64,000 bases of DNA from a virus (lineage: Duplodnaviria; Heunggongvirae; Uroviricota; Caudoviricetes). Below the pieces are notes generated by a model. The model worked only from the letters and a program-made list of their open reading frames with translations. It was not told where the DNA came from and did no database searches. Location: IMG/VR virus record IMGVR_UViG_3300027763_000047, positions 6,308 to 70,307 of that record. One strand, 5' to 3'. The position numbers and the translations under genes are program-made. This document shows positions 979 through 46,024 of this stretch, one piece after another. Position 1 is the stretch's first letter. Each line of letters opens with the position of its first letter.

Positions 979-979
979 T

Positions 980-1183: not shown

Positions 1184-1184
1184 T

Positions 1185-5464: not shown

Positions 5465-5652
5465 TTAAACACAAATATTCTGAACTAATACACGCATGGG
5501 CAGACGGTGCGACCATACAAGTGTATTGGACTGGAAGTGGCAAAACACAGTTTGAGTGGATGGATGTAGAATTTCCAGACTGGAATATAGATAACTGTAC
5601 AACCATGGATGGTCAAGTGATTACATGGCGTCTTAGAATTAAACCAAAATAA
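5461..5652 (+). CDS. small array protein (divergent; ends WRLRIKPK)
   Basis: ATGA overlap start; weak similarity to member 6 tail. Confidence 0.45.
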   Translation: MIKHKYSELIHAWADGATIQVYWTGSGKTQFEWMDVEFPDWNIDNCTTMDGQVITWRLRIKPK

Positions 5653-5662
5653 GAGAGAAGAA

Positions 5663-5893
5663 ATGTATAAAGTATATTGGTCTTCAGAAGATGGAGCCGC
5701 CCGTAGTAAAGATTATTTAGAAATGACTGATGCCCTAACCGAGGCTAACCGTATGCGTACCATTGGTATGTCATATGTTGCCATGGTAGGTGAGAACCCT
5801 AACCAAGTGGGCAAGATGGGATGTGATAGTGTGGAAGATGGTAAACTACCAAACGGTGAAGAGTATACTTGGAAAATGCGCGGGAATCTATAA
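5663..5893 (+). CDS. hypothetical small protein
   Basis: 76-aa ORF after a short gap with GAGAAG RBS. Confidence 0.5.
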   Translation: MYKVYWSSEDGAARSKDYLEMTDALTEANRMRTIGMSYVAMVGENPNQVGKMGCDSVEDGKLPNGEEYTWKMRGNL

Positions 5894-5894
5894 C

Positions 5895-6161
5895 ATGACA
5901 ACAATGTGGATTGGTGATTTAAATCAGTATCGTGCGATACGTGAAATGTTTGACATTTATTGTACCGATATTAATAGCGAAGATTGTGCCAGCCCATTCG
6001 AAGACTATTGGAATCGCAGAATTAATTCCCCTACCATGTGTTACGTTATTGGGGTTACTAAAATAAAGGTAATGTCAGATGACGGGTCATATTATATACC
6101 ACTGCAATTATCATTTAATAGCGAAGAAGAACGAACATTTTGGTTGTTACAGAACTCATGA
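5895..6161 (+). CDS. small paralog-array protein, terminal divergent member
   Basis: ATG 5895 just after previous stop; C-term EEERTFWLLQNS. Confidence 0.5.
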   Translation: MTTMWIGDLNQYRAIREMFDIYCTDINSEDCASPFEDYWNRRINSPTMCYVIGVTKIKVMSDDGSYYIPLQLSFNSEEERTFWLLQNS

Positions 6162-24941: not shown

Positions 24942-25373
24942 ATGGCTGGTAAAATGAAAATAGGCTTGAGTTATAGTCGTTGTGTTAGAGAGATCATTGA
25001 AGGCAAGGTCGATATCAATGATGTGTTGATTATTATTGCACGGACTAATTTTGATCCACATGATGATGCACAGTGGACAGGCATTTGGCGTGGATACAGT
25101 AATGATGCTTTCTTCAGTTATCCAGAATGGGGCAATTATGAAGATACAGATGAACAAAGATTTAGAGATGTAACCATTGAGTTATATGATTCTGGTCGTT
25201 TACATCAGCCACGCAAGTTTGGAGCACATCCGGTACGCCGTAATGAGGTTTGGCTTGAGGCTGTATTACCCAGTAGTGAACTTGAACGAAATACTGCGGC
25301 CAAAACAGCATGGGATCATTTCCAAACTGTGGCTGGCCTTACCAACGTAACCCTGGATAGGAATTACCGATGA
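24942..25373 (+). CDS. hypothetical protein
   Basis: 143-aa ORF; alternative ATG at 24954. Confidence 0.5.
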   Translation: MAGKMKIGLSYSRCVREIIEGKVDINDVLIIIARTNFDPHDDAQWTGIWRGYSNDAFFSYPEWGNYEDTDEQRFRDVTIELYDSGRLHQPRKFGAHPVRRNEVWLEAVLPSSELERNTAAKTAWDHFQTVAGLTNVTLDRNYR

Positions 25374-25570
25374 AATCAAAATACATTGAGCAGTATAAGG
25401 CGGACTGGGGGCCAGAGTTCGCTGAACTGGCTGGAGTTGAATATCGTCCCGAACATGACGAGATAGCAGCCATGGGTTGTTATACTCTAATGAATTATAT
25501 TGCCTATAACTTTCTCAACGGTGAGTGTAGAGCGGAAATCTTAAAAATGTGTGGAGTTGAAGAATGTTAA
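25370..25570 (+). CDS. small hypothetical protein
   Basis: ATGA coupling. Confidence 0.45.
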   Translation: MKSKYIEQYKADWGPEFAELAGVEYRPEHDEIAAMGCYTLMNYIAYNFLNGECRAEILKMCGVEEC

Positions 25571-27147: not shown

Positions 27148-27353
27148 TCATTGACTCAGGCTTCCAGTACGTCAAAACGATTCACAAACCCAAGGGGAGT
27201 CTGGATCGAATAATCGATTGGTGCAAACAGGAGACCCAGGGCGAGTGGCGATGGCAGTTAATTGCTGTTAGCAGCGAACATACCCCGGGCGAGTACATCT
27301 TTTATTTCGATTCCGAACGCGATTACCTTTCATTCCTAATGAAATGGTCTTGA
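27138..27353 (+). CDS. dispersed member of the LRWS paralog family
   Basis: I-D-W-C-K-Q-E core; C-term ERDYLSFLMKWS. Confidence 0.55.
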   Translation: MCLIIDSGFQYVKTIHKPKGSLDRIIDWCKQETQGEWRWQLIAVSSEHTPGEYIFYFDSERDYLSFLMKWS

Positions 27354-27378
27354 CAATTAATTCACCATAAACTATAAT
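27350..27378 (+). promoter_or_regulatory. perfect consensus sigma70 promoter
   Basis: ttgacaattaattcaccataaactataat. Confidence 0.7.
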
Positions 27379-27406
27379 AGTTGTACATTAACAAATGGAG
27401 TGCAGC

Positions 27407-27574
27407 ATGAGTTTTATGCAAGAAGCAGTTCGTGAGTGGGCGTGGATTGTGGGTCAAGATCGAGAAGATCAACAATGGATTCTTTCCGATTATGATACTT
27501 GGGAACGTAATCCACATTACCGTGGCCCGGATCTGGGTCATCCTGAAGATTGCTATTACGGAGATGAAGAATGA
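27407..27574 (+). CDS. small hypothetical protein (55 aa), not in ORF track
   Basis: GGAG RBS 7 nt upstream; stop overlaps next ATG. Confidence 0.5.
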   Translation: MSFMQEAVREWAWIVGQDREDQQWILSDYDTWERNPHYRGPDLGHPEDCYYGDEE

Positions 27575-27912
27575 AAATGAAAAGCTATCGTTATCTTGGT
27601 GATAACATTGAAATTTTAGGTCAACGATTAGATGGTGCTCGTAAAGCACTGGCTAATTCTAAAACTGACTGGGCAAAGGGTTACTGGAATAATGTTATTG
27701 AATGTCTAGTGGCACAATGGCACTTGTTGCCGGTGTTGCATGACTGTGATGCCGTTTTCACGGATAAGCCACGCTGGACTGTTAAGTATGATTTCATTGA
27801 AGGTGATCTTGACGAGCGTGGTGGTTGGATCAGTAATCTTTATCAGCGTGATGTTAACTTCAACTGGAGCTGGGACAATGTTCGTGCTCAGCGATTAGCT
27901 AAATCTCAATAA
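27571..27912 (+). CDS. hypothetical protein
   Basis: ATGA-coupled. Confidence 0.5.
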   Translation: MKMKSYRYLGDNIEILGQRLDGARKALANSKTDWAKGYWNNVIECLVAQWHLLPVLHDCDAVFTDKPRWTVKYDFIEGDLDERGGWISNLYQRDVNFNWSWDNVRAQRLAKSQ

Positions 27913-28124
27913 TGGAAATTGATATGACAGAATTTGTTCTTACCCGTAAACAAGTGTTACAATTATCGGAAATTGCTAGCAAGTTTCCACATGTACAACA
28001 TTACACCATCTCCTTTAGTAATGAATCTGGAATTGGCACTAGTGTAACAGCTAAGTTTGTATTATTTGACGATGCCAAAGACTTTGATGCAACAGTGGAT
28101 CTCACGGATTTAGGTTCATGGTGA
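27912..28124 (+). CDS. small hypothetical protein
   Basis: 70 aa. Confidence 0.45.
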   Translation: MEIDMTEFVLTRKQVLQLSEIASKFPHVQHYTISFSNESGIGTSVTAKFVLFDDAKDFDATVDLTDLGSW

Positions 28125-28181
28125 TAAGGAGATATAAATGCCAATACGAACTAGAACTATATTTAATTAATAGGACAAAAA

Positions 28182-28598
28182 ATGCTTGATTGTTTGATTG
28201 TAGGCGATTCAATCGCCGTTGGTACTAAGATGTTTATGCCCCACTGCCAGTTACAGGGCAAAGGTGGTATTAATACCTGGCAGTTTAATAAGATGTACAA
28301 GGGCAGTTTTTATGCTGATACAGTTATTATCAGTCTAGGTTCAAACGACCATAAAGGTGTAAAGACCTATGATGAACTGTTTGAAATGCGTCAGCGTGTA
28401 GGTGCTAAGAATGTATTTTGGGTATTGCCAGCAGGCAATAATCCTGCAGGTGGTGTATCAATTGAAAAAATTCAAAGTATCGTGAAAGAAATCGCCAGTA
28501 GTTATGGTGATACAGTATTGCCTATTACACGATTACAACCTGATGGAATTCATCCATCATGGGCAGGTTACAAAAATATTGCAGAGAAAGCAAAATGA
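28182..28598 (+). CDS. SGNH/GDSL-type hydrolase
   Basis: LIVGDSIAVG, SLGSNDH, C-terminal DGIHP. Confidence 0.6.
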   Translation: MLDCLIVGDSIAVGTKMFMPHCQLQGKGGINTWQFNKMYKGSFYADTVIISLGSNDHKGVKTYDELFEMRQRVGAKNVFWVLPAGNNPAGGVSIEKIQSIVKEIASSYGDTVLPITRLQPDGIHPSWAGYKNIAEKAK

Positions 28599-28825
28599 AC
28601 GAACAGAAGATTAAAGAATTGGTGCTAGCCGCAGGTGCTGAGTATCATTTTGGAGGGGATATTTTGGTAAACAATGTGCATATATTTGCTGAAAAGTTGA
28701 TTGAGTTGACTGTTAAGGAATGTATTTCTGTCTTAGAAGAAGAAGTTGTGGGGTCGATTGACCGGCATGGCGATAACGTCTACCTGGACCTTATATTAAA
28801 CAAACATTTTGGAGTTGACAAATGA
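28595..28825 (+). CDS. small protein of the HFGVEE paralog family
   Basis: FAEKLIELTVKECI ... LNKHFGVDK; ATGA coupled. Confidence 0.5.
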   Translation: MNEQKIKELVLAAGAEYHFGGDILVNNVHIFAEKLIELTVKECISVLEEEVVGSIDRHGDNVYLDLILNKHFGVDK

Positions 28826-29013
28826 ATTTTTTAATTACCTTATACAATAATACTTTGGATTGGCTGGAACGTCATGAAAAAATAGTATTGGGATTTATCT
28901 TGGGAGTAATCTCATTCACTGTGCTGATGTTATTACTAAACGCACATTGGGTCGCAGCAGGTATTTTTGCTGTGCTTACATTTCTTAATTTTTACCTCAA
29001 CAGAAACAAATAA
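28822..29013 (+). CDS. small membrane protein
   Basis: two hydrophobic segments. Confidence 0.45.
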   Translation: MNFLITLYNNTLDWLERHEKIVLGFILGVISFTVLMLLLNAHWVAAGIFAVLTFLNFYLNRNK

Positions 29014-29018
29014 GTAAT

Positions 29019-29171
29019 ATGAAAACTTTAATTCACTCCGGATGGGTTATAACTTGGCTATTTGGAATAGTATTAGCTAAAGGTTTTTGGAGTACATTAG
29101 TTGCAGTAATCTTCCCACTATGGGGATACTACTTGGTAGCTGAATACGTAGTACTGAAGTACTTACAATAG
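29019..29171 (+). CDS. small membrane protein (50 aa), not in track
   Basis: MKTLIHSGWVITWLFGIVLAKGFW... Confidence 0.35.
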   Translation: MKTLIHSGWVITWLFGIVLAKGFWSTLVAVIFPLWGYYLVAEYVVLKYLQ

Positions 29172-29179
29172 GAGTTATT

Positions 29180-29371
29180 ATGAATGCAGATCGCAGAATG
29201 GTAGCAGAAGCTGTAGTACAAGGTCTAGTTAGTGAAGAACATTTGACCTTATCAGAGTTAAATGAGATGATTGAAATATTAAGCGATGTATCAATTCATC
29301 AAGGACTTGAAGACGCTCGTCTTCGTGGATGTATTGTATTTTATGGATTTGACATAGAAACAATACATTAA
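29180..29371 (+). CDS. small hypothetical protein
   Basis: 63 aa. Confidence 0.4.
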   Translation: MNADRRMVAEAVVQGLVSEEHLTLSELNEMIEILSDVSIHQGLEDARLRGCIVFYGFDIETIH

Positions 29372-29503
29372 GTACCGCTATAACTACCATTATATGCGTA
29401 GTTATAGCAGTTAAGTACAAGGTTATTCAAAAGATTTGTTAGTTAAATAATCTTGCTATATAATATGTTACTCAATGTAGTTCAATTTAAAAAAGGAAAA
29501 GTA

Positions 29504-30673
29504 ATGAAATTTACTCAAAAAATGCTGGCAGCAGCTTTACTGGCACTAGGTCTTGGATCTAGCGCAGCTCACGCCGCAGACTCGTCTGTGACACTATACG
29601 GTATCTTAGATGCCGGTCTCCAAGGCTCTTCACAAAGTTTGTCCAACGGTTACTCATCAAGTAATGTTGGATTGGCCTCTGGTGTGCAGTCAGGCAATCG
29701 CTTTGGTATCAAAGGTTCGGAAGATTTAGGTTCAGGTCTTCGTGCTACTTTTGCTCTTGAAGCAGGCTTCAACTTAGGTAGTGGTGTTAGTCAGCAAAAT
29801 GGCACCTTGTTTGGTCGTCAATCATGGGTTGGTGTTGAAAGCAGCTCGTTAGGTTACGCTCGTGTAGGTAAGCAATATAACTTTGCAACAGACTATGTTG
29901 GCGCAATTGATCCATTCCTCTTGGGATTTGGTCAGGCTAATATGGGTACCACATTCGGTGCTGCTAATACTACCCGTTATAACAACATGGTTAAGTATCA
30001 GACACCAACATGGAATGGCTTAACAGCTGGTGTTGGTTATTCGTTTGCTAACGGCTTGGCTAGTTTGTATGCTGATCCAGCTAACTACGGTGGATATGTT
30101 GCTGCTAACACATACAACTATGCCACAGCTAACAACGCTCGTACATTAACAGCTGGTATTAAGTATGCGTCTGGTCCCGTGACTGTTGTTGGTTCATATG
30201 ATGTTATGTATGGTCCTGAAAACATTGTTGGTTCAAATGCTGCTAATCCATCACAGTGGATTGTGGGCGGTGCGTATGACTTCTCAGTTGCTAAAATTGC
30301 TGCTGCGTACAGTCAGTCACGTAACGGTTGGATCAATGGACAAGCTAGTGTAGACCCAACATTCACAGCCAACACTTATAACAGTGGTGCCGGTGCCGTG
30401 TTGTATAGTCCTTCGTTTGGTGCTAACAGCTATCTAGTAGGTGCTACTGTTCCTGTAACAGGCGCACAGAAAGTATTTGCCAGCTATCAATATGCTACTC
30501 CGGTCGCATCAATGGCTGCTGCTGCTAATCTGAGCATTTATTCAGTTGGTTATCAATATGACTTGTCAAAGCGTACCAATGCGTATGCCTATGCTAGTCA
30601 GGCTCAAAACTATGCGTTCTTAGACGGTGCCAAGAGCACAGTTTATGGACTTGGTTTACGGCATCAGTTCTAG
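29504..30673 (+). CDS. Gram-negative outer-membrane porin (betaproteobacterial porin_4-like)
   Basis: signal peptide ending AHA-AD; VTLYGILDAG; C-terminal ...GLRHQF; start at ATG 29504 after AAGGAAAAG. Confidence 0.75.
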   Translation: MKFTQKMLAAALLALGLGSSAAHAADSSVTLYGILDAGLQGSSQSLSNGYSSSNVGLASGVQSGNRFGIKGSEDLGSGLRATFALEAGFNLGSGVSQQNGTLFGRQSWVGVESSSLGYARVGKQYNFATDYVGAIDPFLLGFGQANMGTTFGAANTTRYNNMVKYQTPTWNGLTAGVGYSFANGLASLYADPANYGGYVAANTYNYATANNARTLTAGIKYASGPVTVVGSYDVMYGPENIVGSNAANPSQWIVGGAYDFSVAKIAAAYSQSRNGWINGQASVDPTFTANTYNSGAGAVLYSPSFGANSYLVGATVPVTGAQKVFASYQYATPVASMAAAANLSIYSVGYQYDLSKRTNAYAYASQAQNYAFLDGAKSTVYGLGLRHQF

Positions 30674-30688
30674 AAGTAAAAGGATAAC

Positions 30689-31228
30689 ATGAACAAGTTT
30701 TTATCAATCGTTATCCTAGCACTGGCTTCCGCTTCAGCGGTTGCTGGTGGCTATGTAACAGCAACCGACGGCAGCATCGTTAAGACTGGTAGTGATTTGT
30801 GTTTACACACAGGTTATTACACAGCTACTGATGCAGTTAAAGGTTGTGACGCAGTTCCAGTTACCCCAGCTAAGCCAGCATCAATCACGCTTGACTCAGA
30901 TGTATTGTTTAAGTTTGATTCGGCAACGCTAACCGCAGACGGTGTGAAAGCACTGGACGTGGTTGCAGCCAAAGCCGGTGGCGTTGTAATCATCGTAGGA
31001 CACACTGATCGTATTGGATCTAGTCGATACAATCAATCTTTAAGTGTTGCTCGTGCTGACACCGTTGCAAAATATGTAGGTGCAAAGGCAAAAGCAGATT
31101 ACTCAGTAACTGGAGTTGGATCCACACAACCAAGTGGCAAAACAAAACAATGTATTGGCCCTATGAGCCCGCAACTTATTGCTTGTTTAGCACCTGATCG
31201 TCGTGTAGTTATTACTATCGTTAAGTAA
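30689..31228 (+). CDS. OmpA-family C-terminal domain protein (signal peptide)
   Basis: VIIVGHTDRIGSSRYNQSLSVARADTV OmpA-like motif. Confidence 0.75.
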   Translation: MNKFLSIVILALASASAVAGGYVTATDGSIVKTGSDLCLHTGYYTATDAVKGCDAVPVTPAKPASITLDSDVLFKFDSATLTADGVKALDVVAAKAGGVVIIVGHTDRIGSSRYNQSLSVARADTVAKYVGAKAKADYSVTGVGSTQPSGKTKQCIGPMSPQLIACLAPDRRVVITIVK

Positions 31229-31331
31229 CATGGCTTGGGCCTCTGCGGTTTAACCGTACGCCTGAGTTTTCTAAATATAGCAACAAAACCCTACCCTGCC
31301 TCTCGCAGAAGCACACTTTGGAGGGTTACTC

Positions 31332-31362
31332 GGGACACAGTAATGTGTCCCATTTCTTTCTC
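31332..31362 (+). terminator. rho-independent terminator
   Basis: gggacaca-gtaa-tgtgtccc followed by atttctttctc. Confidence 0.65.
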
Positions 31363-31391
31363 TTGACATTTAATTCATCAACAACTATACT
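31363..31391 (+). promoter_or_regulatory. sigma70-type promoter
   Basis: ttgacatttaattcatcaacaactatact. Confidence 0.6.
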
Positions 31392-31451
31392 GTTATTATA
31401 GCAGTAAGAAGAATTTTATGCAGGTAACTCTCAAGATTAGGAACTATTATA

Positions 31452-31628
31452 ATGATTAGACTTTGGTTAATATTTGTTGTACTTTCAATATTAATTCATT
31501 TGGGTATCTCCACCTGGAGAAATATGAAAGGTAAGGATCGATGGGCATTGACTAAGTCCATTGGTTATAGTATAATTGTTGCATTACTAGTTGTTCTATT
31601 CTTAACTTCAATCGTTATTTTATTCTAA
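31452..31628 (+). CDS. small two-TM membrane protein (58 aa), not in track
   Basis: MIRLWLIFVVLSILIHLG... Confidence 0.4.
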   Translation: MIRLWLIFVVLSILIHLGISTWRNMKGKDRWALTKSIGYSIIVALLVVLFLTSIVILF

Positions 31629-31636
31629 GGAATTAT

Positions 31637-32434
31637 ATGAAACAAATTTTTAAATTGGCAGTTGTAGCAGGTCTTATCGCAACCACAGTTGGTTGTCAGC
31701 GTATTGAAACCGGCGAAGTAGGTGTACGAGTTGGCTTTGATAAACAAGTAAAACCAGGCGAGTTGCAACCAGGTTCTTTTAATCAAACACTAATTGGTGA
31801 TGTACTTACATTCCCTGTTCGTGATGTATCAGTTAAGATTGATGACATGACTCCGCTTGCCAAAGACAACAGCACTATGAAAGACATGGATGTTACTGTT
31901 ATCTATAACATCAATCCAACGCAAGTTAGCGAATTGTATGTTAGCAAGAACCGTAGCTTTCACGTTAAGCACAATGGTGACACTTACTTGATGTACAACT
32001 ACATTTTCAATGCCGCACGAAATGCTGCTTACAAAGCTGCTCGTAAGTATGACGCATTGACTATGAACGACAGTCGTGCGTTAATGGAACAGGATATGAA
32101 AGACATCATTGCCAAGACCTTGGCAGATGAAAATCTTGCTGGTTCAATTACAGTAAGCCAAGTTCTTATTCGTGCGCTAACTCCAGCAGACTCAGTGGTT
32201 GCGTCAGCCAATGAATTGGTACGTTCTAAGAACGAGCTGTTGCAAAAGGAGGTTGAAGTCAAAACAGCCGAAGCAGAATCTCGTCGTATGGCAGCACTTA
32301 CCAATCAAAGCTCGGCCAGTATTGCTTACATGAATGCTCAGGCTGCGTTAAACATCTCCGAAGGTGTCAAGAACGGTAAGGTGCAGACCATTATTGTTCC
32401 CAGCAACATGACCGGCTTGATGATTGGCAAGTAA
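31637..32434 (+). CDS. SPFH/band-7 domain lipoprotein
   Basis: lipobox LIATTVGC; ETGEVGVRVGF...DVTVIYNINP SPFH-like core. Confidence 0.55.
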   Translation: MKQIFKLAVVAGLIATTVGCQRIETGEVGVRVGFDKQVKPGELQPGSFNQTLIGDVLTFPVRDVSVKIDDMTPLAKDNSTMKDMDVTVIYNINPTQVSELYVSKNRSFHVKHNGDTYLMYNYIFNAARNAAYKAARKYDALTMNDSRALMEQDMKDIIAKTLADENLAGSITVSQVLIRALTPADSVVASANELVRSKNELLQKEVEVKTAEAESRRMAALTNQSSASIAYMNAQAALNISEGVKNGKVQTIIVPSNMTGLMIGK

Positions 32435-32684
32435 TATGAACGAACGATTTCAGCAACTATTGAAACAGAGTACCAATCCTCCCTGGGATGGTGAGCAGGG
32501 CCCAATGAACGAATTTAATTTGGAACGGTTCGCTGAGTCGATTGTAAGAGAATGTGCCAAGTATATCAATGAACGCACTCAAGACTGGGATGCCGATTTG
32601 CGGTGGATCTTCAATGACGGTTCTGGTGATATGGCAGTCAATGTTGACGAATTATTAAATAGACATTTCGGAGTTGAAGAATGA
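32424..32684 (+). CDS. small protein of the HFGVEE family
   Basis: FAESIVRECAKYI ... LNRHFGVEE. Confidence 0.55.
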   Translation: MASNMNERFQQLLKQSTNPPWDGEQGPMNEFNLERFAESIVRECAKYINERTQDWDADLRWIFNDGSGDMAVNVDELLNRHFGVEE

Positions 32685-32878
32685 ACGAACGAATTAGAGA
32701 GCTTGCTGATGATGCTGGATTTATGGATTCTTGGTTTTCCGAATCCGGTGATGATTGTGAACGAGAACTTAAAAAGTTCGCCGAGTTGATTGTCGAAGAA
32801 TGTATTAATATTTGTATTTCCAATAGAAACGATGACTCTGCCCAGTACATCGAAAAACATTTCGGAGTTGAAGAATGA
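32681..32878 (+). CDS. small protein of the HFGVEE family
   Basis: FAELIVEECINICI ... IEKHFGVEE. Confidence 0.55.
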   Translation: MNERIRELADDAGFMDSWFSESGDDCERELKKFAELIVEECINICISNRNDDSAQYIEKHFGVEE

Positions 32879-33138
32879 ACTTAGAACTGGTAGCCAAGCT
32901 ATACGAGCAATCATATAAGACAGTACCACATAACCCCACCAGCGGCTTTGATGCTAAATTGGAGGATCGTGTGTTTGTACCAGAGTTGTTCGCCGAGTTA
33001 CTGGTCATGGAATGCTATGAAAGTTGCAGAAGTCAGGTACTTGATAAAGAAACTGCTGACACAAACGAACTAACATATAATGATGCTGTTGGTGATTGTG
33101 CAATTGGGTTATTACAACATTTTGGGATGATGGAATGA
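32875..33138 (+). CDS. small protein of the HFGVEE family
   Basis: FAELLVMECYESC ... LLQHFGMME. Confidence 0.5.
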   Translation: MNLELVAKLYEQSYKTVPHNPTSGFDAKLEDRVFVPELFAELLVMECYESCRSQVLDKETADTNELTYNDAVGDCAIGLLQHFGMME

Positions 33139-33281
33139 AGAAAACATTGGCTGTGCTACTTACAATTACTTTCCCAATTTGGTGTATCCCTGCTGTGCTG
33201 GGGTCACTAGCTTACTTGGCAGTGGCTACACTATATAAAGAAATGTTGGCATTTTTAGAATGGCTTGGAGTTAAAGAATGA
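33135..33281 (+). CDS. small membrane peptide
   Basis: ATGA-coupled; ends LEWLGVKE using the same junction cassette. Confidence 0.4.
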   Translation: MKKTLAVLLTITFPIWCIPAVLGSLAYLAVATLYKEMLAFLEWLGVKE

Positions 33282-33733
33282 CAAATCGTAGAGGATTTTT
33301 ACAATCAGTATCGGCAGCATTGGGGTCAACCCTGTTGTCTGGTAGTACAGTTGCATCAGTATTGACAGCCGCACCTGTAGCATCAGGAGTAGCCACAGTG
33401 GCCGCAGTTGCGGCAGTGGCCAGACAGTTTAAGTCGAGTGGTGTTGTTCTTGATGCTGCCACGCTTGAACCAATATCTCGGGTGGTGATATTTAATGGAG
33501 ACGAGTCAGTAATTAAAGAAGACGTGAAGTATTCTGAGATATTTGACGATCCGGCAAGACTAGCAGAAATTGAAGAATTGGATAAATTATATCCTAATTC
33601 CAATGTGCATAGTAAATGGACCTTGGCGGCGACACGTTTGGTACTGGAAAAGAAAGGCATGCCACCACTTACTGCCGAGGAAGAAATTATGATTATTGAA
33701 GGTCGAAAGCCCGTGGTTGGAGTCGAGGGATGA
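33278..33733 (+). CDS. Tat-signal (twin-arginine) secreted protein
   Basis: MTNRRGFLQSVSAALGSTLLSG... Confidence 0.5.
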   Translation: MTNRRGFLQSVSAALGSTLLSGSTVASVLTAAPVASGVATVAAVAAVARQFKSSGVVLDAATLEPISRVVIFNGDESVIKEDVKYSEIFDDPARLAEIEELDKLYPNSNVHSKWTLAATRLVLEKKGMPPLTAEEEIMIIEGRKPVVGVEG

Positions 33734-34302
33734 CGTGGCCATTGGCTTCTCCATTGAAAGAAAATACCAACTGGATCGTTAGGGATAACGTCTTTAGTAA
33801 TATTGAGCTTGATCAAATAATTAAATTAGGCAACAGTATTACCTCCAGTACCGGTACGATAGGTTCTGAAATAACTAACGAATATCGTAAATCCAGTATA
33901 GCCTGGCTGGATACTGAAGATCCAGAATTCGATTGGATATATGCCACGCTTGCACCAGTGATTACTGAAATCAATGATGCATATTATCGATTTGATCTGA
34001 AGTCCCTCCAGACTTTACAGTTTACCCGGTATACCACCGCTGGCGTATATAAACCGCATACCGATCTGGGTAGGCAAAAGCCCACTAGAAAGTTGAGTTT
34101 TACTGTACAATTATCTGATACGACAAATTACGAAGGTGGAGATTTGCGTTTTTTAAATTTAAAGACAACCCCCGAGTCAGCCCCCAGGGCTCGAGGAAAA
34201 ATTATTTTCTTCCCCAGCTGGATGACTCACGAGATAACTCCCGTGACCCAGGGTACACGATATAGTCTAGTTGGGTGGGTAGAAGGACCGTTATTCAGAT
34301 GA
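33730..34302 (+). CDS. 2OG-Fe(II) oxygenase (prolyl-4-hydroxylase-like)
   Basis: YKPHTDL (HxD), WMTHEI (His), RYSLVGW (Arg). Confidence 0.7.
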   Translation: MTWPLASPLKENTNWIVRDNVFSNIELDQIIKLGNSITSSTGTIGSEITNEYRKSSIAWLDTEDPEFDWIYATLAPVITEINDAYYRFDLKSLQTLQFTRYTTAGVYKPHTDLGRQKPTRKLSFTVQLSDTTNYEGGDLRFLNLKTTPESAPRARGKIIFFPSWMTHEITPVTQGTRYSLVGWVEGPLFR

Positions 34303-34417
34303 CGTCGGTAACGGCATCTGTATCGTTTTTGGCTAACCAGGTCAAGATGAATACTAAATTCAGATGAAATCTGCATGATGTGGATCAGTACGCTGTATCG
34401 GTATAAATACTATTATC

Positions 34418-36358
34418 ATGAAAATACACGAAATTACCTTGTTATTCGAGGGTTATCCCCAAGCTCAAGATGCTTTTATTCAGCAATCGGGCGGTGATAC
34501 TGCATCAGTACAAAAAACTATCGCCGACTTTCGTCAGTTGGTGAATAGAAATCAGATCAAAGACACAAACCAAAAGAATATCGATTGGTGGGCCAAACAG
34601 GGCTGGGATAAGTTCAATGCTTTTGTCAATCAGGCATCAGCAATACCCAGCAAGACGCAAATGACCAGAAAGAAAATACCTGGGCAAAGCATCAACTTGG
34701 TGGATGATGCTCAGTGGCTCATCGTTGTGCCACTGGACAAGGAAGCCAGCTGTTTTCATGGAAGAAACAGCAGTTGGTGTACTACTAAAGTTCATCAGGA
34801 ACATTTTGAAAATTACTTCTACAACAATGAAGTAACCTTGATATATTGCTTTAATAAAGCCACTGGTGGTATGTGGGCTATAGCGGCACATAAAAGAACA
34901 GATCGCATGGAAATGTTTACACAACAAGATGCATCAATATCGGCAGAACAATTTACACAACTGACTGGTCTAGATCCTCAACAGTTACGATCCATGGCTC
35001 TGGGTGACGTTCATCAACCTGCAGTACAGGCATCCAGAGATCAATGGAAGGAATCTGTAGCATTGACAAAACAATTGATGGCTACAATGCCACGCGGCAC
35101 CAGATCGGCAGAAATAGAAAAGCAATTGGAGTATAATAAAGTAGGGGGATTATGCTTTGATTATATCTACCGATTTCAGTCAATTGAATCCAAAGACTTT
35201 CCGTTGTCGATACAGATATCGGCAATTAACAAAAATGGTGCCGTATTGGACCGAATCAATAATCCTGTTCAAGCTGTGCAACTGGCAGCAGTCAAGAAGG
35301 AAAATCTTGGGTTGAAAACCATCATTGCTCATGGAGCCAAGCCCAATGAAGCCGTACAACTGGCAGCAGTCACACAACACGGTCCTGCTATAGGTTTCCT
35401 GAAAGCCGCCGGCATCACTCCCAGCGAGGCTGTTCAAATGGCAGCAGTAAATCAGAGCGGTACTGCTATACATTCCATCATATCGAATGGTATCGTGCCC
35501 AGTGATGAGGTGCAAATAGCAGCAGTAACTCAGAATCCAGAAGCAATAAAATTCATAATCACAGATTTGGGCACTGAGCCAAGTCATGCTGTGCAAATGG
35601 CAGCAGTCAAACGTTACGGCGGAACGTTTCGAATGTTGATGAATCATGGAATTGTTCCCAGCAAAGACGTTCAAGAAGAAGCAATAGCCAGGGACGGCCT
35701 TAGTATACAATATTTGAAAAATCCCAATGAGAGATTACAATTGGCCGCAGTTAGCAATGTTGGCAGGGCTATATTGTTTATTCTCCGGGCCGGCATCAGA
35801 CCAAGTCACGCGGTGCAATTGGCAGCAGTGACGCAGGATGGGCTGGCACTCGATTATATCTTACAGGATAAAATTAAACCAGAGTATGATGTGCTATTAG
35901 CAGCAGTGACCCAGGATGGCCGTGCCATTGAATATATCCAAAATCCCGACGAGCGATTACAGATAGCCGCAGCCAAGAGAAATAGTGGTGCATTAAAACT
36001 TTTAATGAAAGCTGGAATAACCCCCAGTTATGCCGTACAGATGGCGTCAGTTACTCATGATCCCTGGTCTATAAAATATTTGAAAAATCCCGATGAGAGA
36101 TTACAATTGGCCGCAGTCAACAATCATGGTGGTGCATTACATGAAATAATCAAATCTGGAATTCTTCCCAGCGAGGCGGTACAATTGGCCGCGGTCAAAT
36201 CAAGCCCCATAGTATTACGTATGATCCAAAATCCCAGCATGGCGGTTCGCGACGCTGCACACATAGCAGCACAAGAGAAAAAAGCTCAAGAGGATGCTGC
36301 TATAAACGCTGCCAGAGCTGCCAGAGCTGCTCAAGGTGCCCAAGCAGCACCGGCCTAA
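34418..36358 (+). CDS. repeat protein with about 14 tandem ~37-aa repeats (DUF4116-like)
   Basis: repeats P-S-x-A-V-Q-[LM]-A-A-V-x-Q-x-G-x-A-[IL]-x-[YF]-[IL]; TATAAATA 10 nt upstream. Confidence 0.55.
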   Translation: MKIHEITLLFEGYPQAQDAFIQQSGGDTASVQKTIADFRQLVNRNQIKDTNQKNIDWWAKQGWDKFNAFVNQASAIPSKTQMTRKKIPGQSINLVDDAQWLIVVPLDKEASCFHGRNSSWCTTKVHQEHFENYFYNNEVTLIYCFNKATGGMWAIAAHKRTDRMEMFTQQDASISAEQFTQLTGLDPQQLRSMALGDVHQPAVQASRDQWKESVALTKQLMATMPRGTRSAEIEKQLEYNKVGGLCFDYIYRFQSIESKDFPLSIQISAINKNGAVLDRINNPVQAVQLAAVKKENLGLKTIIAHGAKPNEAVQLAAVTQHGPAIGFLKAAGITPSEAVQMAAVNQSGTAIHSIISNGIVPSDEVQIAAVTQNPEAIKFIITDLGTEPSHAVQMAAVKRYGGTFRMLMNHGIVPSKDVQEEAIARDGLSIQYLKNPNERLQLAAVSNVGRAILFILRAGIRPSHAVQLAAVTQDGLALDYILQDKIKPEYDVLLAAVTQDGRAIEYIQNPDERLQIAAAKRNSGALKLLMKAGITPSYAVQMASVTHDPWSIKYLKNPDERLQLAAVNNHGGALHEIIKSGILPSEAVQLAAVKSSPIVLRMIQNPSMAVRDAAHIAAQEKKAQEDAAINAARAARAAQGAQAAPA

Positions 36359-36441: not shown

Positions 36442-36470
36442 TTGACATTTAATCAAAGGTCAGCTATAAT
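36442..36470 (+). promoter_or_regulatory. perfect consensus sigma70 promoter
   Basis: ttgacatttaatcaaaggtcagctataat. Confidence 0.7.
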
Positions 36471-40901: not shown

Positions 40902-42323
40902 ATGTCGCAACAAATTATTAATGTAGGTACGGCGCCCAACGATGGTTTGGGAACTCCAATACGTACTGCTTTTCAGTACACAAATAATAACTTCACGCAA
41001 CTGTTTTCGTTGCCGAATCCTACACCCCCAACTACCCTAGTGGGCAAAGCGGGCGATGTCCCGGGTATGTATGCATACAGCGCGGCATATTTTTACTACT
41101 GTTTTGGAACTTATGATGGTTCCACTGTTATTTGGGCACAGATTGCCCAGGGTAATACCTCAATCTCAAATATCGTTAATGGCACTAGTAATGTAAGAAT
41201 CGGTAGTGCCAATGCCAATGTAACCGTGGGAGTAAACGGTACAGCAAATATTGCAGTTTTCAGTAATACTGGAGTATCAGTAACTGGTAATATTAGAACC
41301 TCTGGACAAATAACAGCCACTGGTAATGTATATGGTAATGCCATTGTCGGCACTTACTTGTACGGAGATGGCAGCAATATTAGTAACATATCAGGTGGCG
41401 GGAATTACAGTAATACCAATGCAGCAGCATATCTACAGGTACTAACTTCAAATGTATCAACAACTGGCAACATAACCGGAAGTTATATTTTAGGCAATGG
41501 TAGAAATTTAACTGGATTACCGTTAACCTATGGCAATGCTAACGTTGCTAACTTTTTACCAGTATTTACTGGTAACATATTATCAAGTAATATGACCGCT
41601 ACTGGAAACGTGCATGCCGGAAATATTAAAACGGTGGGAATAGTTTCAGCAACAGGAAACATCACTACTGACGGATATTTTATTGGCAATTTCGTTGGGA
41701 ACATATCAGGTAACTTAGTAGTGCCTGGATCGAATACTCAAGTACTTTATAATGATAATGGAAATGCTGGAGCAAGCGCCGGGTTAATATTTAACTCTGC
41801 ATCAAACATTTTATCAGTAACGGGAAATGTGTATGGCAATTATTTTCTTGGTAACGGTAGTCAATTAACAGGGTTACCAGTTACGTATGGCAATGCCAAT
41901 GTGGCTGCTTATCTACCAACTTATACCGGCAACATAACAGCAGGTAATATCAGTACCACTGGAAATATAACAGCTAGCTATATTTTAGGTAATGGTAGTC
42001 AATTAACTGGCATCGCCGCCACCGGCATAAATGCAAACGCACTAACTGGATCTACCTTATCAAGCAATGTTACTACCAGCAGCTTGACTTCTGTTGGTAC
42101 TTTGGCAAATTTAAGTGTAACCGGCAATGTAGTGGCATCTGGGGTAGTGACTTCTACCGGCACATTTAGATTGCCTAGTTATACTACCGCACAAATTGCC
42201 AACATATCAGCGGTAGAAGGAGATATGGTTTATAATTCAACTGTACAACAAATACAAGCATATCAAGCAAATGCCACAGGTAACGTAACATGGGTAAGTT
42301 TAAGTGTGTCTACTTACCAGTAA
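40902..42323 (+). CDS. tail fiber protein
   Basis: N-term MSQQIINVGTAPNDGLGTPIRTAFQYTNNNFTQLF; ILGNGSQLTG modules shared with the giant fiber. Confidence 0.8.
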   Translation: MSQQIINVGTAPNDGLGTPIRTAFQYTNNNFTQLFSLPNPTPPTTLVGKAGDVPGMYAYSAAYFYYCFGTYDGSTVIWAQIAQGNTSISNIVNGTSNVRIGSANANVTVGVNGTANIAVFSNTGVSVTGNIRTSGQITATGNVYGNAIVGTYLYGDGSNISNISGGGNYSNTNAAAYLQVLTSNVSTTGNITGSYILGNGRNLTGLPLTYGNANVANFLPVFTGNILSSNMTATGNVHAGNIKTVGIVSATGNITTDGYFIGNFVGNISGNLVVPGSNTQVLYNDNGNAGASAGLIFNSASNILSVTGNVYGNYFLGNGSQLTGLPVTYGNANVAAYLPTYTGNITAGNISTTGNITASYILGNGSQLTGIAATGINANALTGSTLSSNVTTSSLTSVGTLANLSVTGNVVASGVVTSTGTFRLPSYTTAQIANISAVEGDMVYNSTVQQIQAYQANATGNVTWVSLSVSTYQ

Positions 42324-42334: not shown

Positions 42335-45076
42335 ATGACAGCACAGCCTATTTGGATTACTCCCCCTGGTAGTTTAGGTACTGTACCAGAAGGTGCTTAC
42401 TACGAAGTACCACTGCGTGTTACCGATACGTTTACCACTGACCTCATAGGTATCGTGGGTAGTGGATCTTCAGTCACAGCTACATTTTATACTCAGACAG
42501 TATCCATGTTCCAACCTGGTGATACTGTTGTGGTCACTGGAGTTAACCCGTCATCTTATAACGGTAGCTTTATAGTAACCAAATGTACCACTACACAAAT
42601 TACATATACGAGTTCGGCTACCGGTACTTGGATCGGTGGCGGTACTATCACTTCCGTGCCATCGACTGTATATTTTGAATCTATTGCTGGCGCATTACCC
42701 GATGGTATTGAATGCACGACATCTGGCGTACTACAGGGTACTCCTACCAATGTGGTTACAGTGGCAGATGAAGCATTGGTAGTGGGAGTCAATGTTACCA
42801 GTAAATTTGCTATTAGGGCCTATACAACCAAAACAGTTGGTGGCATTACTGTCATTAATAGATTAGCCGATAGAACATTTACTATAACGGTCGCTGGGCA
42901 AAATCTACCCAGTTGGATCACACCTGCGGGCGAACTTAGTCAGCTATGGGTAGGTGAATTGTTGTCCCCAGGTATACAATTAGATTATACTACTGATAAT
43001 ACAACTGGAATTCCGCCGGCTATCAGCTTGTATTCGGGGAGTTTGCCCCCGGGAATTACAGTTAGTGATACTGGCTTAATTTCTGGATTTGTTGGCTTAA
43101 ATCCAACAACATCTGCTCAACCTGGATTCAGTGTTAACGGTCAAGGATTTAGTACATACCCATTTGATTTTGATATAGAAGCACAAAATTCCACATATAC
43201 ATTTACACTACAGGTTACTGATGGTCGAATATCTGCATTACGAGAATTTAGCCTATTCGTATGGAGTACTGAGGCATTTACTGCTGACACTACCTTGATC
43301 ACAGCTGATAACACCTATCTAACAGCCAGCATATCCAGTGTTAATACCCCAGTGATAACAAACCCTCAGGGATCTATTGGCACCACATACAGCAATACAT
43401 ATTTTGCTTACCAATTTGTGGGGAAGAATATTACCGGAGACACTATAGGGTATACTGGTGCTTCGTTACCCACAGGGTTAACACTTAATTCAACAACTGG
43501 ATGGTTAACCGGATACTTACCTACAATTGGGCTATTCGAATCTACTTTTGATTTTACAGTAACCGCATACCTAACCAACTCGCCATCAGTGACTAGTGAT
43601 CCATATGATTTTAGCCTGACAGTTGAAGGACCTATATTCTCCAATGTGACCTGGCTCACACCCTCCAACTTGGGCACCATTGCCAATGGGTCCACCAGTA
43701 TATTTTATGTTGAGGCGACCAATACTACTAACACAAATTTACAGTATCAATTAGTATCAGGATCAGATTCAAAATTACCGCAGGGATTAACTCTATTGCC
43801 ATCAGGTAATATTGCTGGGCGTGTAAGTTTTAATGCATACCCCACCCCCGCTCAGTATGGTAGCACAGTATACACCTTTACAGTAAACGCTTACAGTACT
43901 AATGGATTTATCAGTGTTAATAAAACGTTCTCCATCACGGTGGAGCGTGTCTACGAGACACCTTATCAAAACTTGTATATCCAATGTATGCCGCCGGTTG
44001 ATGATCGAGAATTGATTGCTAGTTTACTGCAAAATTCTACTATCTTTACTCCGTCACTACTATATCGTCCCGATGATACTAACTTTGGATTGAGTCGCAA
44101 TGTCGTGTATCATCATGCATATGGATTAAATGCTGCCAGCGTGGATACCTATGTATCCTCACTTCAACTTAACCACTACTGGAAGAATTTACTCTTGGGA
44201 GAAATTAAAACAGCACAAGCTGTCGACCCTTTAACAGGTAATGTAGTGTACGAAGTAGTATATTCGGAAATCATAGATAGCTTAGTCAACAATGACAATC
44301 TAAGTGTTGGCAAAGAAGTGGTGCTGGCCTATCCAATAGAAGAGCAAACAATTGATGTAGTGTACCCTAATTCGCTTGATAACATGAGAGATCAGGTAAT
44401 TGACGTAGTGGGACAGGAGAGTGACCTGTTACCGTTATGGATGCAGAGTTCCCAAGCAGATGGTAAAGTTTTAGGGTTTATCCCAGCATGGGTAATTGCA
44501 TATACAATACCAGGGGCGTCGGGGCAGATACAATACAATATACAGACACAGTTTGGAATCCAATTAAATCTAGTGGATTTTGTAGCCGATCGGTATGAGC
44601 TTGATAACGCTCTTACAGTTAACTGGGATGGCAACACACAAAGTTGGGTACCAAGCCCACCGGAGACGACATCATTTGACATCAATTACCACTATAATGT
44701 CACTATAGGCACAGCAGGCAATGTATACCTAGCGGGTGATCAAATTAAGATCTTAGGCTCGTCACTGGGCGGGGTAACTCCTGCTAATGATTTACTCATA
44801 ACGGTCAATACTGTAAATACCAATGGTGCCATCCTTGATGCATTCTATTATGGTACTGCCAATAGCGCAGCGGCTGGTAATTCCTATGATAACTTAGCCG
44901 GGGTAAATGTAGTTGGTCCAGGCACTGGGGCCACTTGGGATATTACTGTAGTACCAGGAGTCGAAACTGTATTTGACGGGGGAAGCGTTACCTTTATTGC
45001 TCCAGCAGATACAGATACCAGCTCCACTGCTAACGACAAATACTTGTTGTATCCCAAATACAATATATTAGTTTAA
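42335..45076 (+). CDS. tail fiber/structural protein (913 aa)
   Basis: Ser/Thr/Gly/Asn-rich beta-rich composition; directly downstream of fiber gene. Confidence 0.55.
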   Translation: MTAQPIWITPPGSLGTVPEGAYYEVPLRVTDTFTTDLIGIVGSGSSVTATFYTQTVSMFQPGDTVVVTGVNPSSYNGSFIVTKCTTTQITYTSSATGTWIGGGTITSVPSTVYFESIAGALPDGIECTTSGVLQGTPTNVVTVADEALVVGVNVTSKFAIRAYTTKTVGGITVINRLADRTFTITVAGQNLPSWITPAGELSQLWVGELLSPGIQLDYTTDNTTGIPPAISLYSGSLPPGITVSDTGLISGFVGLNPTTSAQPGFSVNGQGFSTYPFDFDIEAQNSTYTFTLQVTDGRISALREFSLFVWSTEAFTADTTLITADNTYLTASISSVNTPVITNPQGSIGTTYSNTYFAYQFVGKNITGDTIGYTGASLPTGLTLNSTTGWLTGYLPTIGLFESTFDFTVTAYLTNSPSVTSDPYDFSLTVEGPIFSNVTWLTPSNLGTIANGSTSIFYVEATNTTNTNLQYQLVSGSDSKLPQGLTLLPSGNIAGRVSFNAYPTPAQYGSTVYTFTVNAYSTNGFISVNKTFSITVERVYETPYQNLYIQCMPPVDDRELIASLLQNSTIFTPSLLYRPDDTNFGLSRNVVYHHAYGLNAASVDTYVSSLQLNHYWKNLLLGEIKTAQAVDPLTGNVVYEVVYSEIIDSLVNNDNLSVGKEVVLAYPIEEQTIDVVYPNSLDNMRDQVIDVVGQESDLLPLWMQSSQADGKVLGFIPAWVIAYTIPGASGQIQYNIQTQFGIQLNLVDFVADRYELDNALTVNWDGNTQSWVPSPPETTSFDINYHYNVTIGTAGNVYLAGDQIKILGSSLGGVTPANDLLITVNTVNTNGAILDAFYYGTANSAAAGNSYDNLAGVNVVGPGTGATWDITVVPGVETVFDGGSVTFIAPADTDTSSTANDKYLLYPKYNILV

Positions 45077-45121: not shown

Positions 45122-46024
45122 ATGACCAGTGCAATAAATCCAAACAACATCAATGGCGCTTACCCAGTAGCGGGCCAAGATAATAATTCACAGGGGTTTC
45201 GTACTAATTTTACAAATACTTCGACCAACTTCCAGTATGCAGCACAAGAAATCACAGACTTACAGGGCAAAGTCGTGGTAAATGCACAGTTATCTGGCGG
45301 CGCGAACTTGTCAGTTCAAAACAACATGTTAAACTCTCCACTAACCAATGCGTTGGTAGCTGATTTTGCCTACACCACCGTTGGCCTTGGTAGTGTAAGC
45401 GGATCGTTTACTGTAAATTATGCAGTGGGTCATTATCAAACAGCCACACTAGCTGGCAGTGCAAGTGTAGCATTTACCAACTGGCCTATCTCCGGACAGA
45501 CAGGTGTGGTAACTTTGCAGGTTACCGTACCAAATACAGCATATACCCTGACACTACCCACGGCAGTCAGTCAAAATATTAACGGGATACAGGGTCTTGT
45601 GTATCCAGCAGGTGCTAGCCCAGTGATTCAATTTGCCGCGACCGGAGTTTATACTTTTGTATTCTCTACTAGCACAAATGGATCTACTATTATCATTAAT
45701 CAAAACAATGAAATACTGACCCCACTAAACAGCTCTAAAGAATCTGTAACAAGTGCCGCTGCTGCTAGCCTAGCAACAACTACCTCATTCTTTACCACAG
45801 CAGGAACCGCCACGCTGGCCAACGGAGTCGAGGGTCAGATCAAAGTGTTCACGCAAACTGCATCAGCCTCCATGGTTATTACGGTGGCCAGTGCCGGTTG
45901 GAACTCAGCAACATCGGGAACTTCTGGTACTATTACGCTGGCAGCTAGAGGTGCTGGATGCACCCTACAGTATACCAATTCGGTTTGGTACTGTATTGGT
46001 AATAACGGCGCTACGTTTGGTTAA
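45122..46024 (+). CDS. structural (fiber-like) protein
   Basis: Ser/Thr/Ala-rich 300 aa; CTAAATAATA late-promoter-like motif upstream. Confidence 0.5.
   Translation: MTSAINPNNINGAYPVAGQDNNSQGFRTNFTNTSTNFQYAAQEITDLQGKVVVNAQLSGGANLSVQNNMLNSPLTNALVADFAYTTVGLGSVSGSFTVNYAVGHYQTATLAGSASVAFTNWPISGQTGVVTLQVTVPNTAYTLTLPTAVSQNINGIQGLVYPAGASPVIQFAATGVYTFVFSTSTNGSTIIINQNNEILTPLNSSKESVTSAAAASLATTTSFFTTAGTATLANGVEGQIKVFTQTASASMVITVASAGWNSATSGTSGTITLAARGAGCTLQYTNSVWYCIGNNGATFG

Follow-up and report, generated by a model that had tools for sequence, protein, structure and literature searches.

The DNA analyzed here (the window) is a 64,000-nucleotide (nt) stretch of a tailed virus (Duplodnaviria; Heunggongvirae; Uroviricota; Caudoviricetes), positions 6,308 to 70,307 of IMG/VR record IMGVR_UViG_3300027763_000047, and it carries four small genes of one family in which three short, nearly constant blocks enclose two variable segments. 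All four lie on the + strand. The first, g28595 (28595..28825, 76 amino acids (aa), MNEQKIKEL...FAEKLIELTVKEC...KHFGVDK), overlaps the stop codon of a GDSL-like gene with its start, as ATGA, and the start of a 63-aa membrane protein with its stop, again as ATGA. The others stand in a row: g32436 (32436..32684, 82 aa), the ATG of which lies 2 nt past the stop codon of a Band_7 gene; g32681 (32681..32878, 65 aa), the shortest of the four and the nearest to the family consensus; and g32875 (32875..33138, 87 aa), with an N-terminal block that begins MNLEL... In a first-pass annotation of the same DNA the second of these genes had been started at TTG 32424, which is wrong; the start is placed at ATG 32436 because all homologs begin MNERF, gene callers give these homologs 82 aa, and an in-frame stop codon lies 15 nt upstream of this ATG in phage L003.

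The four genes had been grouped in that annotation by a central motif and a C-terminal tail, and both are present as described. The central motif reads FAESIVREC in g32436 (32529..32555), FAELIVEEC in g32681 (32777..32803, TTCGCCGAGTTGATTGTCGAAGAATGT) and FAELLVMEC in g32875 (32989..33015); in g28595 (28685..28723) it is FAEKLIEL-TVKEC, with an insertion of four residues. The tails are KHFGVDK in g28595, RHFGVEE in g32436, KHFGVEE in g32681 and QHFGMME in g32875. All four products thus follow the pattern of an N-terminal MNE(R/Q)..., a central FAE(L/S/K)(I/L)(V/I)xEC and a tail (K/R/Q)HFG(V/M)(E/D/M)(E/K) directly before the stop codon. Three ordered blocks with the family codons (ATGAACGAACGA..., TTCGC(T/C)GAGT(C/T)GATTGT...GAATGT and CATTTCGGAGTTGAAGAATGA) are found in g32436 and g32681, whereas g28595 deviates by the 4-codon insertion in its central block and g32875 by a degenerate N-block and tail.

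The proposed paralogy reaches well past the terminal pentapeptide of these tails. When each gene in turn was left out of the profile and all 1,056 open reading frames (ORFs) in the six frames of the window were searched, the omitted gene was always the best non-training match (E values of 2.7e-4, 1.1e-8, 1.9e-5 and 3.0e-5), and the next matches had E > 1. Furthermore, a profile built from 130 homologs on other contigs, with no window sequence in it, gave full-length matches to exactly these four genes (1.4e-21, 7.5e-20, 2.2e-10 and 1.1e-9), and no other window ORF fell below E = 1. Judged by these profiles, the four genes are true paralogs.

Seen beyond the window, the genes are members of a very large and undescribed family found in uncultured freshwater tailed phages, which usually carry several copies per genome, often in tandem. 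At least 4,922 proteins among 8,000 candidates matched a family profile at E ≤ 0.01, on contigs of up to 344 kilobases (kb); every one was a metagenomic 'hypothetical' protein that lacked a Pfam domain. When 1.84 billion cluster representatives (50% identity) were searched exhaustively with HMMER, 5,210 matched at E ≤ 1e-3 and 141 at E ≤ 1e-10, nearly all of 60–100 aa. One candidate, P0126 (1,964 aa, 21 stretches), was discarded as a eukaryote-like repeat protein with a spurious summed score. In 80 IMG/VR loci (a number also given as 84) and the window, a protein profile identified 297 members, commonly in overlapping tandem and up to 14 in a single 16-kb locus, the setting being freshwater viral contigs.

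No described family or structure was recovered. None of 134 diverse members matched Pfam, PHROGs v4 or NCBIfam 20 at E ≤ 1e-3, the PDB gave no significant sequence match (best E 0.028 over ~20 residues), and the family motif strings were not found in a literature search. Fold searches yielded no solved structural relative, and that of BFVD returned mainly uncharacterized 'uncultured Caudovirales phage' proteins, none at E 0.001. Among cultured phages (INPHARED), no match was obtained by megablast of 27500–34500 or by tblastn of two members; a consensus-like member gave one weak match, to a metagenomic Caudoviricetes record. A prophage or host origin was also rejected: among 185,579 species genomes only 14 loci were found, each on a contig from a metagenome-assembled genome (some, at least, lake-named) and none in an isolate genome, and the family appears to be absent from the prophages of sequenced isolates.

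The alignments give the family plan as MNERI(K/R)ELAEQA(G) – V1 – (E)KFAELIVREC – V2 – (I)K.HFGVEE and stop, in which the variable segments V1 (~15–35 aa) and V2 (~20–40 aa) are both unalignable between members. In DNA, the 5' block reads ATG AAC GAA CGA ATT AAA GAA CTT GC. (MNERIKELA), the central block AAG TTC GCC GAG TTG ATT GTN CGG GAA TGT (KFAELIVREC) and the 3' block CAT TTC GGA GTT GAA GAA TGA (HFGVEE and stop); FG(V/I/M/L) occurs within the last 8 residues of 248 of the 297 members. The central block (...GAGTTGATTGT.(C/G)..GAATGT) and the terminal block (GGAGTTGAAGAATGA) have GAGTTGA and GAATG in common (e.g. 32786–32803 and 32864–32878), and in g32681 the residues IVEEC are encoded by GTCGAAGAATGT and GVEE with its stop by GTTGAAGAATGA. 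This likeness might reflect an ancient internal duplication or the fusion of two units, the similarity being very short.

The AlphaFold2 models of g32436 (predicted local distance difference test (pLDDT) 73, predicted template modelling score (pTM) 0.61) and g32681 (pLDDT 79, pTM 0.66) each contain three helices, at residues 3–11, 29–48 and 70–78 in the former and at 3–11, 27–47 and 53–61 in the latter. In both models these helices coincide with the three blocks, where pLDDT peaks; it is lowest in V1 and V2, and the terminal GVEE lies outside the last helix. The proteins are acidic, with a median isoelectric point (pI) of 4.8, 271 of 274 members below pI 7 and a net charge of −7 to −11 for the window members. 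The invariant Cys and the His were considered as a general zinc site, which was rejected, 99 of 274 members having a single Cys. On these predictions the product would be a three-helix acidic accessory protein with the blocks as its structural core.

Such a picture is close to what would be expected of an ordinary, fast-evolving family of small phage proteins, in which the motifs are kept for the fold or for a partner, the Shine–Dalgarno (SD) sequences and ATGA overlaps are the usual packing of phage genes, and the sharing of modules is descent with divergence of the loops. The motifs do coincide with helices in the models and have a hydrophobic pattern, positions that vary do so conservatively (K/R/Q at position 6; I, L or V in the central block), and ATGA overlaps are frequent across the window. 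However, synonymous choice in the blocks hardly varies and falls on codons that the remainder of these genes seldom uses (CGA, GCC, GAG, TTG, CGG and GGA), conservation at third positions is close to that at first positions, and the flanking DNA is mostly unrelated. This explanation is regarded as quite unlikely.

The codon usage behind this argument was taken from 57 genes at 42 loci, with V1 and V2 mutually <35% identical, and the rest of the same genes served as the background. In the N-block, AAC was used for Asn2 in 89.5% of cases (background 26%), CGA for Arg4 in 96% (11.5%, p 5e-40) and CTT for Leu8 in 65% (17%). In the central block the values were 90% for AAG (background 37.5%), 72% for TTC (21%), 88% for GCC (19%), 90% for GAG (24.5%), 89% for TTG (23%) and 61% for CGG (11%), and in the 3' block 98% for CAT (65%), 96.5% for GGA (22%, p 5e-34), 96% for GTT (38.5%) and 98–100% for GAA (75.5%). 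Conservation at third vs first codon positions of the blocks was 0.73 vs 0.74, 0.81 vs 0.86 and 0.86 vs 0.83. Retrieval bias was rejected as the source of these values, since the codon preference persists in 196 non-seed genes and in the N-block, which was never a search pattern. The exact 31-nt consensus of the tandem junction occurs in at least 120 IMG/VR stretches, as does, again in at least 120, the exact 30-nt central block, and when the family genes were masked only 473 of 3,160 locus pairs shared any nucleotide similarity, 90 of them at least 1 kb. As far as these comparisons reach, the constant blocks are conserved at the DNA level although their flanks are mostly unrelated.

The 3' block has a further property, which had been recognized in the first-pass annotation and is borne out here: its terminal codons contain an SD-like GGAG and, after a spacer of 7 nt, an ATG that shares bases with the TGA stop. 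The five junctions at 28825, 32684, 32878, 33138 and 33281 are all ATGA, with GGAG 7 nt upstream in four of the five. In g28595 the 3' block (28802..28825, AAACATTTTGGAGTTGACAAATGA) carries the putative SD and the ATGA start for the 63-aa membrane protein. At the tandem junction (32661..32716) the 3' block of g32436 (AGACATTTCGGAGTTGAAGAATGA) runs straight into the 5' block of g32681 (ATGAACGAACGAATT...), with GGAG 7 nt before the overlapped ATG; the 3' block of g32681 (32855..32878, AAACATTTCGGAGTTGAAGAATGA) likewise carries the putative SD and the ATGA start for g32875, and that of g32875 (33115..33138, CAACATTTTGGGATGATGGAATGA) is a diverged variant with an ATGA overlap with the membrane-peptide gene g33135. 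The 15-mer GGAGTTGAAGAATGA is exact at 32670–32684 and 32864–32878, has one mismatch at 33267–33281 (g33135) and two at 28811–28825; at ≤3 mismatches it has 9 matches in the window against 2.26 expected, a number reached in none of 100 shuffles.

The same arrangement extends through the family. A TGA stop codon ends 87% of members, and the Gly codon of the tail is GGA in 96% (22% in the rest of these genes). In 178 of 227 distinct members with an FG tail the 3' block (CATTTCGGAGTTGAAGAATGA) carries GGAG at 7 nt from the ATGA-overlapped start of an ORF of ≥35 aa; the remainder mostly overlap shorter ORFs or GTG starts. Only 52–56 of the downstream genes belong to the family and about three quarters do not; therefore, the cassette serves any following gene. 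A special link to downstream membrane peptides found no support, only 22 of ~140 non-family downstream ORFs being membrane-like in appearance. Copies of the cassette also close genes outside the family: GGAGATGAAGAATGA (27560..27574, +) ends the gene 27395–27574 (...YYGDEE) and overlaps the start of the gene at 27571, a looser copy, GGAGTCGAGGGATGA (33719..33733, +), ends a 151-aa gene (...VVGVEG) and overlaps the start of a 2OG-Fe(II) oxygenase gene, and a further copy closes a minus-strand gene ending at 52750. The gene at 25370–25570 (+, 66 aa) contains EFAEL and ends ...CGVEEC, its 3' end (GGAGTTGAAGAATGTTAA) being the cassette; the stop arrangement differs, with the next start at ATG 25564 inside the Glu-Cys codons (GAATGT), followed by TAA. 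This gene is not detectable as a family member (E 3.6–4.7, tail only). The intergenic ribosome-binding site TAGGAGTTATTATG before the gene at 29180 has the same GGAG-N7-ATG spacing.

In most prokaryotic groups an SD sequence typically precedes the downstream start of overlapping gene pairs, and its removal lowered reinitiation in four of five Escherichia coli pairs (Huber et al., 2019, PMC6728339). The junctions described here are similar to such ATGA termination–reinitiation pairs in the 4-nt stop/start overlap, the GGAG in the 3' end of the upstream gene and the 7-nt spacing. They differ in that a fixed 15–21-nt cassette is common to hundreds of non-orthologous genes and dictates the residues GVEE, and in that coupling is here predicted from sequence. 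Ribosomes would couple at the cassette.

Tails of the family are also found on unrelated ORFs. The gene g33135 (33135..33281, +) encodes a 48-aa membrane peptide that ends ...LEWLGVKE (GGAGTTAAAGAATGA) and carries a putative SD and an ATGA start for the 151-aa gene at 33278. It was undetected by any family profile, and only its tail matches. The suggestion that this peptide reuses the cassette is supported by its homolog P0271, which is 58% identical and ends ...ISKHFGVEG, encoded by AAACATTTCGGAGTTGAAGGATAG; because this homolog carries the canonical KHFGVEG tail, the tail of g33135 is taken to be family-derived and not a coincidence. As its sequence stands, g33135 is not a family member, and its tail derives from the family 3' block. 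In locus L104 (1327–1709), a family member ending HFRVEE, in which AGAG replaces GGAG, is followed by the ATGA-overlapped P0271, and the 3' side of P0271 is not a gene but a terminator-like hairpin, then a promoter-like site, the 3' block having been retained with no overlapped downstream gene. Another membrane peptide has both the MNE... and the ...KHFFGVE ends. The 151-aa protein downstream of g33135 (33278–33733, +) has a twin-arginine-like N-terminus (MTNRRGFLQSVSAALG) and no Pfam match, ends ...VVGVEG and overlaps the start of the 2OG-Fe(II) oxygenase gene (33730–34302).

Conservation of this kind could instead mean that the blocks are primarily cis-acting RNA or DNA signals, such as a translational operator, an RNase target or a recombinase or nuclease site, with coding as a secondary role. 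Phage T4 provides models of coordinated mRNA shut-off in RegA and RegB, the latter of which cuts at GGAG. All three blocks are conserved at the nucleotide level across unrelated phages, the 5' block sits on its own start codon and the 3' block on the next, and the lack of homogenization within loci fits purifying selection on sequence better than gene conversion. However, the junctions show no stable or conserved RNA structure (z −0.85 to +1.77 against shuffles), and the central block hides no ORF: reading frames from the ATG inside its GAATGT have a median of 5 codons and a maximum of 28. Furthermore, the blocks keep one fixed frame, encode amphipathic helices and have the highest modelled pLDDT, and no candidate binding protein or nuclease turned up, although the neighbours were not searched systematically. 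A primary cis-acting role is considered rather improbable. We infer that recombination, rather than a function at the RNA or DNA level, keeps the synonymous sites fixed.

Evidence of recombination at the blocks comes from two chimeric genes, one island and the sharing of single modules. The gene P0016 consists of a 5' half matching g32436 (32436–32555, 91.7% nt identity) and a 3' half matching g32875 (32988–33143, 93.6%), and the 28-nt overlap of its two window matches falls exactly on the central block. The reciprocal chimera, P0045, consists of 32875–33014 (75.7%) and 32523–32695 (85.6%), with an overlap of 32 nt at the same block; the central blocks of g32436 and g32875 are thus the crossover sites in both. 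The P0016 contig has no other detectable similarity to the window, and further similarity of the P0045 contig is limited to a diverged GDSL-like gene (~70% identity) and a 150-nt stretch. Assembly artefacts are unlikely, since each chimera was found with the same neighbours in two or three independent assemblies.

The island is g32436, which is 95.7% identical in nucleotide sequence over exactly 32429–32685 in the related phages L003 and L004, the GDSL-like and lysis-region genes of which are 76–79% identical to those of the window. In these phages, in which the block 28595–32435 is missing, the gene directly follows the GDSL-like gene, the slot held by g28595 in the window. The same slot is filled by P0045 in a 333-kb contig. 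The alignments show crossover inside the central block and the transfer of a single gene. Many pairs of members also have one variable module in common but not the other: 2,284 share only V2 (≥80%, the other module <35%) and 54 only V1, against 400 that share both. Reciprocal chimeras that cross over inside a 30-nt block, and a single-gene island of 95.7% identity in a ~77% background, are further points against the ordinary protein family considered above.

Single-gene transfer with breakpoints at the gene ends would also be expected of selfish mobile cassettes that spread among co-infecting phages, their conserved ends serving as homology for insertion or homing with no benefit to the phage. 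The occupation of the post-GDSL-like slot by different members in three or four phages and the grafting of terminal blocks onto unrelated membrane peptides are consistent with such spread. However, neither a nuclease nor a recombinase is encoded in a gene of 200–260 nt, the loci viewed have no such gene as a dependable neighbour, and intact frames with protein-level constraint are maintained in thousands of copies. This explanation is considered very improbable.

The reading preferred here, with moderate confidence, is that of an acidic helical accessory family (~65–90 aa) in which the constant blocks act at once as structural core, recombination joints and coupling cassette. At the protein level, the blocks would form the three core helices, V1 and V2 being poorly predicted inserts between them. 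In translation, the unstructured GVEE tail would be a ribosome-binding cassette read as codons: with GGAG separated by 7 A/T-rich nt from an ATG that overlaps the TGA, a ribosome ending a family gene could start any next gene. At the DNA level, near-identical blocks common to otherwise unrelated phages host homologous recombination, by which half-genes (V1 or V2 modules) and whole genes are swapped among paralogs and phages, and such swapping yields a combinatorial, hypervariable repertoire; it would also be what keeps the blocks identical. The weakest step is speculative, namely that the proteins are early, dispensable host-interaction factors with variable loops on a constant scaffold.

Several observations weigh against this preferred reading. 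The AlphaFold2 models are of medium confidence and were judged without inspection of their coordinates, and acidity and sigma-70 promoters are only weak pointers to protein function. Overlaps of the ATGA type are common genome-wide (34 in the window), so that by itself such an overlap is unremarkable. Nor can SD function alone be credited with the GGA/GTT/GAA bias of the tail, which is no proof of SD selection, because the N and central blocks show equal bias without a ribosome-binding role; the case for a coupling cassette therefore rests on position, spacing and reuse. With regard to recombination, block identity within loci equals that between loci, with no sign of local gene conversion, and on this ground concerted evolution within genomes was rejected. 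The median exact run shared by random members is 12–14 nt (maximum 33), which is short for efficient homologous recombination. Finally, the number of pairs that share only V2 is inflated, since the ranking of the protein hits favoured likeness to the modules of the window itself.

A bolder version of the recombination argument is that the blocks are cis elements of population-level cassette shuffling, 30-nt in-frame joints kept identical across lineages of freshwater phages so that the V1 and V2 modules of a three-helix scaffold could recombine freely when phages co-infect, with a combinatorial set of small cytoplasmic binders directed against fast-evolving host targets (e.g. defence systems) as the products and the last joint as a portable module for ribosome binding and start. 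This version, which is thought unlikely, would resemble antigenic-variation cassettes and the swapping of hypervariable segments in gp38, but in a tiny, multi-copy cytoplasmic protein. In the gp38 adhesins of T-even phages, conserved glycine-rich motifs have been proposed as a core, and the hypervariable segments are exchanged by recombination (Trojet et al., 2011, PMC3157838). The design logic of short, strictly conserved motifs between exchanged hypervariable segments is the same as that of the present family. However, gp38 is a tail-fibre adhesin with glycine-rich motifs and four variable segments, whereas the family consists of helical, multi-copy accessory genes of ~75 aa with two segments. 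The blocks are not glycine-rich, the neighbours are GDSL-like, porin, OmpA, Band_7 and 2OG oxygenase genes, and no kinship in sequence or fold to such an adhesin was found.

The PeSL cassettes of T4-type phages, which consist of an intergenic early promoter and a stem-loop and for which a role in modular shuffling by homologous recombination has been proposed (Arbiol et al., 2010, PMC2839356; Comeau et al., 2014, PMC4122927), are also short conserved repeats tied to small ORFs of unknown function in variable genome regions. The repeats of the present family differ in being intragenic and translated and in having no stem-loop, and one of them divides its gene into two halves that can be exchanged. 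All the blocks lie inside ORFs, the junctions fold no better than shuffles, and promoter-like sites are found only at operon heads. A target of a diversity-generating retroelement, which would vary over a fixed length and differ from a template repeat chiefly at adenines, was considered and rejected, V1 and V2 differing in length and being unalignable between members, although no search for a reverse transcriptase was made. The internal proteins of T4 (IPI–III and Alt) are small and polymorphic, with a conserved N-terminal capsid-targeting sequence of ~10 residues that contains (I/L)-x-E before hypervariable sequence; the prohead protease cleaves at this motif. The I-(K/R)-E at residues 5–7 of the family N-block (MNER-I-K-E) may resemble it, in a match of three residues, and a comparable targeting role of the N-block is a tentative lead. 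Unlike these internal proteins, the family also has conserved central and C-terminal blocks.

The surroundings of the four genes are rich in envelope functions. The gene order begins with a GDSL-like esterase, g28595, two small membrane proteins, a 63-aa ORF, a Gram-negative porin and an OmpA-like protein, continues with a 58-aa membrane protein, an SPFH/Band_7 lipoprotein and the genes g32436, g32681, g32875 and g33135, and ends with the 151-aa protein, the 2OG-Fe(II) oxygenase and a DUF4116 repeat protein. The envelope cluster at 29504–32434 (+) comprises the porin, which is of the GBP family (Porin_4, E 1.9e-41), the OmpA-like protein, the 58-aa membrane protein and the SPFH/Band_7 lipoprotein. 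Because the best named relatives of the porin are Achromobacter porins (46–47% identity), a freshwater Burkholderiales host is suggested. Identical window segments turn up in lake metagenomes, and the DNA is that of a large uncultured phage genome.

Two perfect sigma-70 consensus sites (TTGACA-17-TATAAT, 12/12) lie on the + strand within 13 kb of each other, at 27350..27378, upstream of the operon of the GDSL-like gene and g28595, and at 36442..36470. A promoter-like site at 31363..31391 (+, TTGACA-17-TATACT, 11/12), just past a terminator-like hairpin at 31332–31351, is the probable head of an operon with Band_7, g32436, g32681, g32875 and g33135. With such sites at the operon heads, the family operons would be readable by host RNA polymerase, which fits early accessory genes, as the family genes would then be.

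Other features of the window were recorded in the course of the analysis. A larger tandem array at 100–6160 (+), of ~25 small genes (60–100 aa), is presumably the first paralog family of the first-pass annotation, in which the present one was counted as the second. Its products end ...(D/E)A.(L/M)F.L(R/K)(W/F)(S/A/L), encoded by ...TTGAGGTGGTCATGA; this C-terminus is conserved but distinct, and it too contains an SD (GAGGTGG) together with an ATGA overlap. Of the small genes in the region around g28595, only that of the 50-aa membrane peptide at 29019–29171 (+) matches a PHROG (phrog_16613, of unknown function, E 2.8e-16). The 2,324-aa ORF at 10463–17437 (−) matches none at E ≤ 1e-5, nor do the ORFs at 40902–42323 (473 aa), 42335–45076 (913 aa) and 45122–46024 (300 aa). 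The 759-aa protein at 55702–57981 (+) aligns over nearly its entire length with phrog_4871 'ATP-dependent protease' (E 2.9e-232), and in the related contigs L099 and L102 a ClpP-family gene lies shortly downstream of family members.

Beyond the four genes themselves, the main outcome is an undescribed and very abundant mosaic family of freshwater phages. With more than 5,000 clusters at 50% identity, it ranks among the larger unannotated protein families in freshwater viromes, and its three blocks could be used by annotation pipelines to recognize it. If the preferred reading is true, a single ORF of ~230 nt would be under three layers of selection, for protein fold, for downstream translation and for recombination potential, and the family would offer a clean setting in nature in which to quantify the contribution of short in-frame homologies to the mosaicism of phage accessory genes. 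As a fixed sequence, the GGAGTTGAAGAATGA tail would represent a compact, portable coupling module, and the V1/V2 repertoire may be a candidate pool of host-interaction or anti-defence factors.

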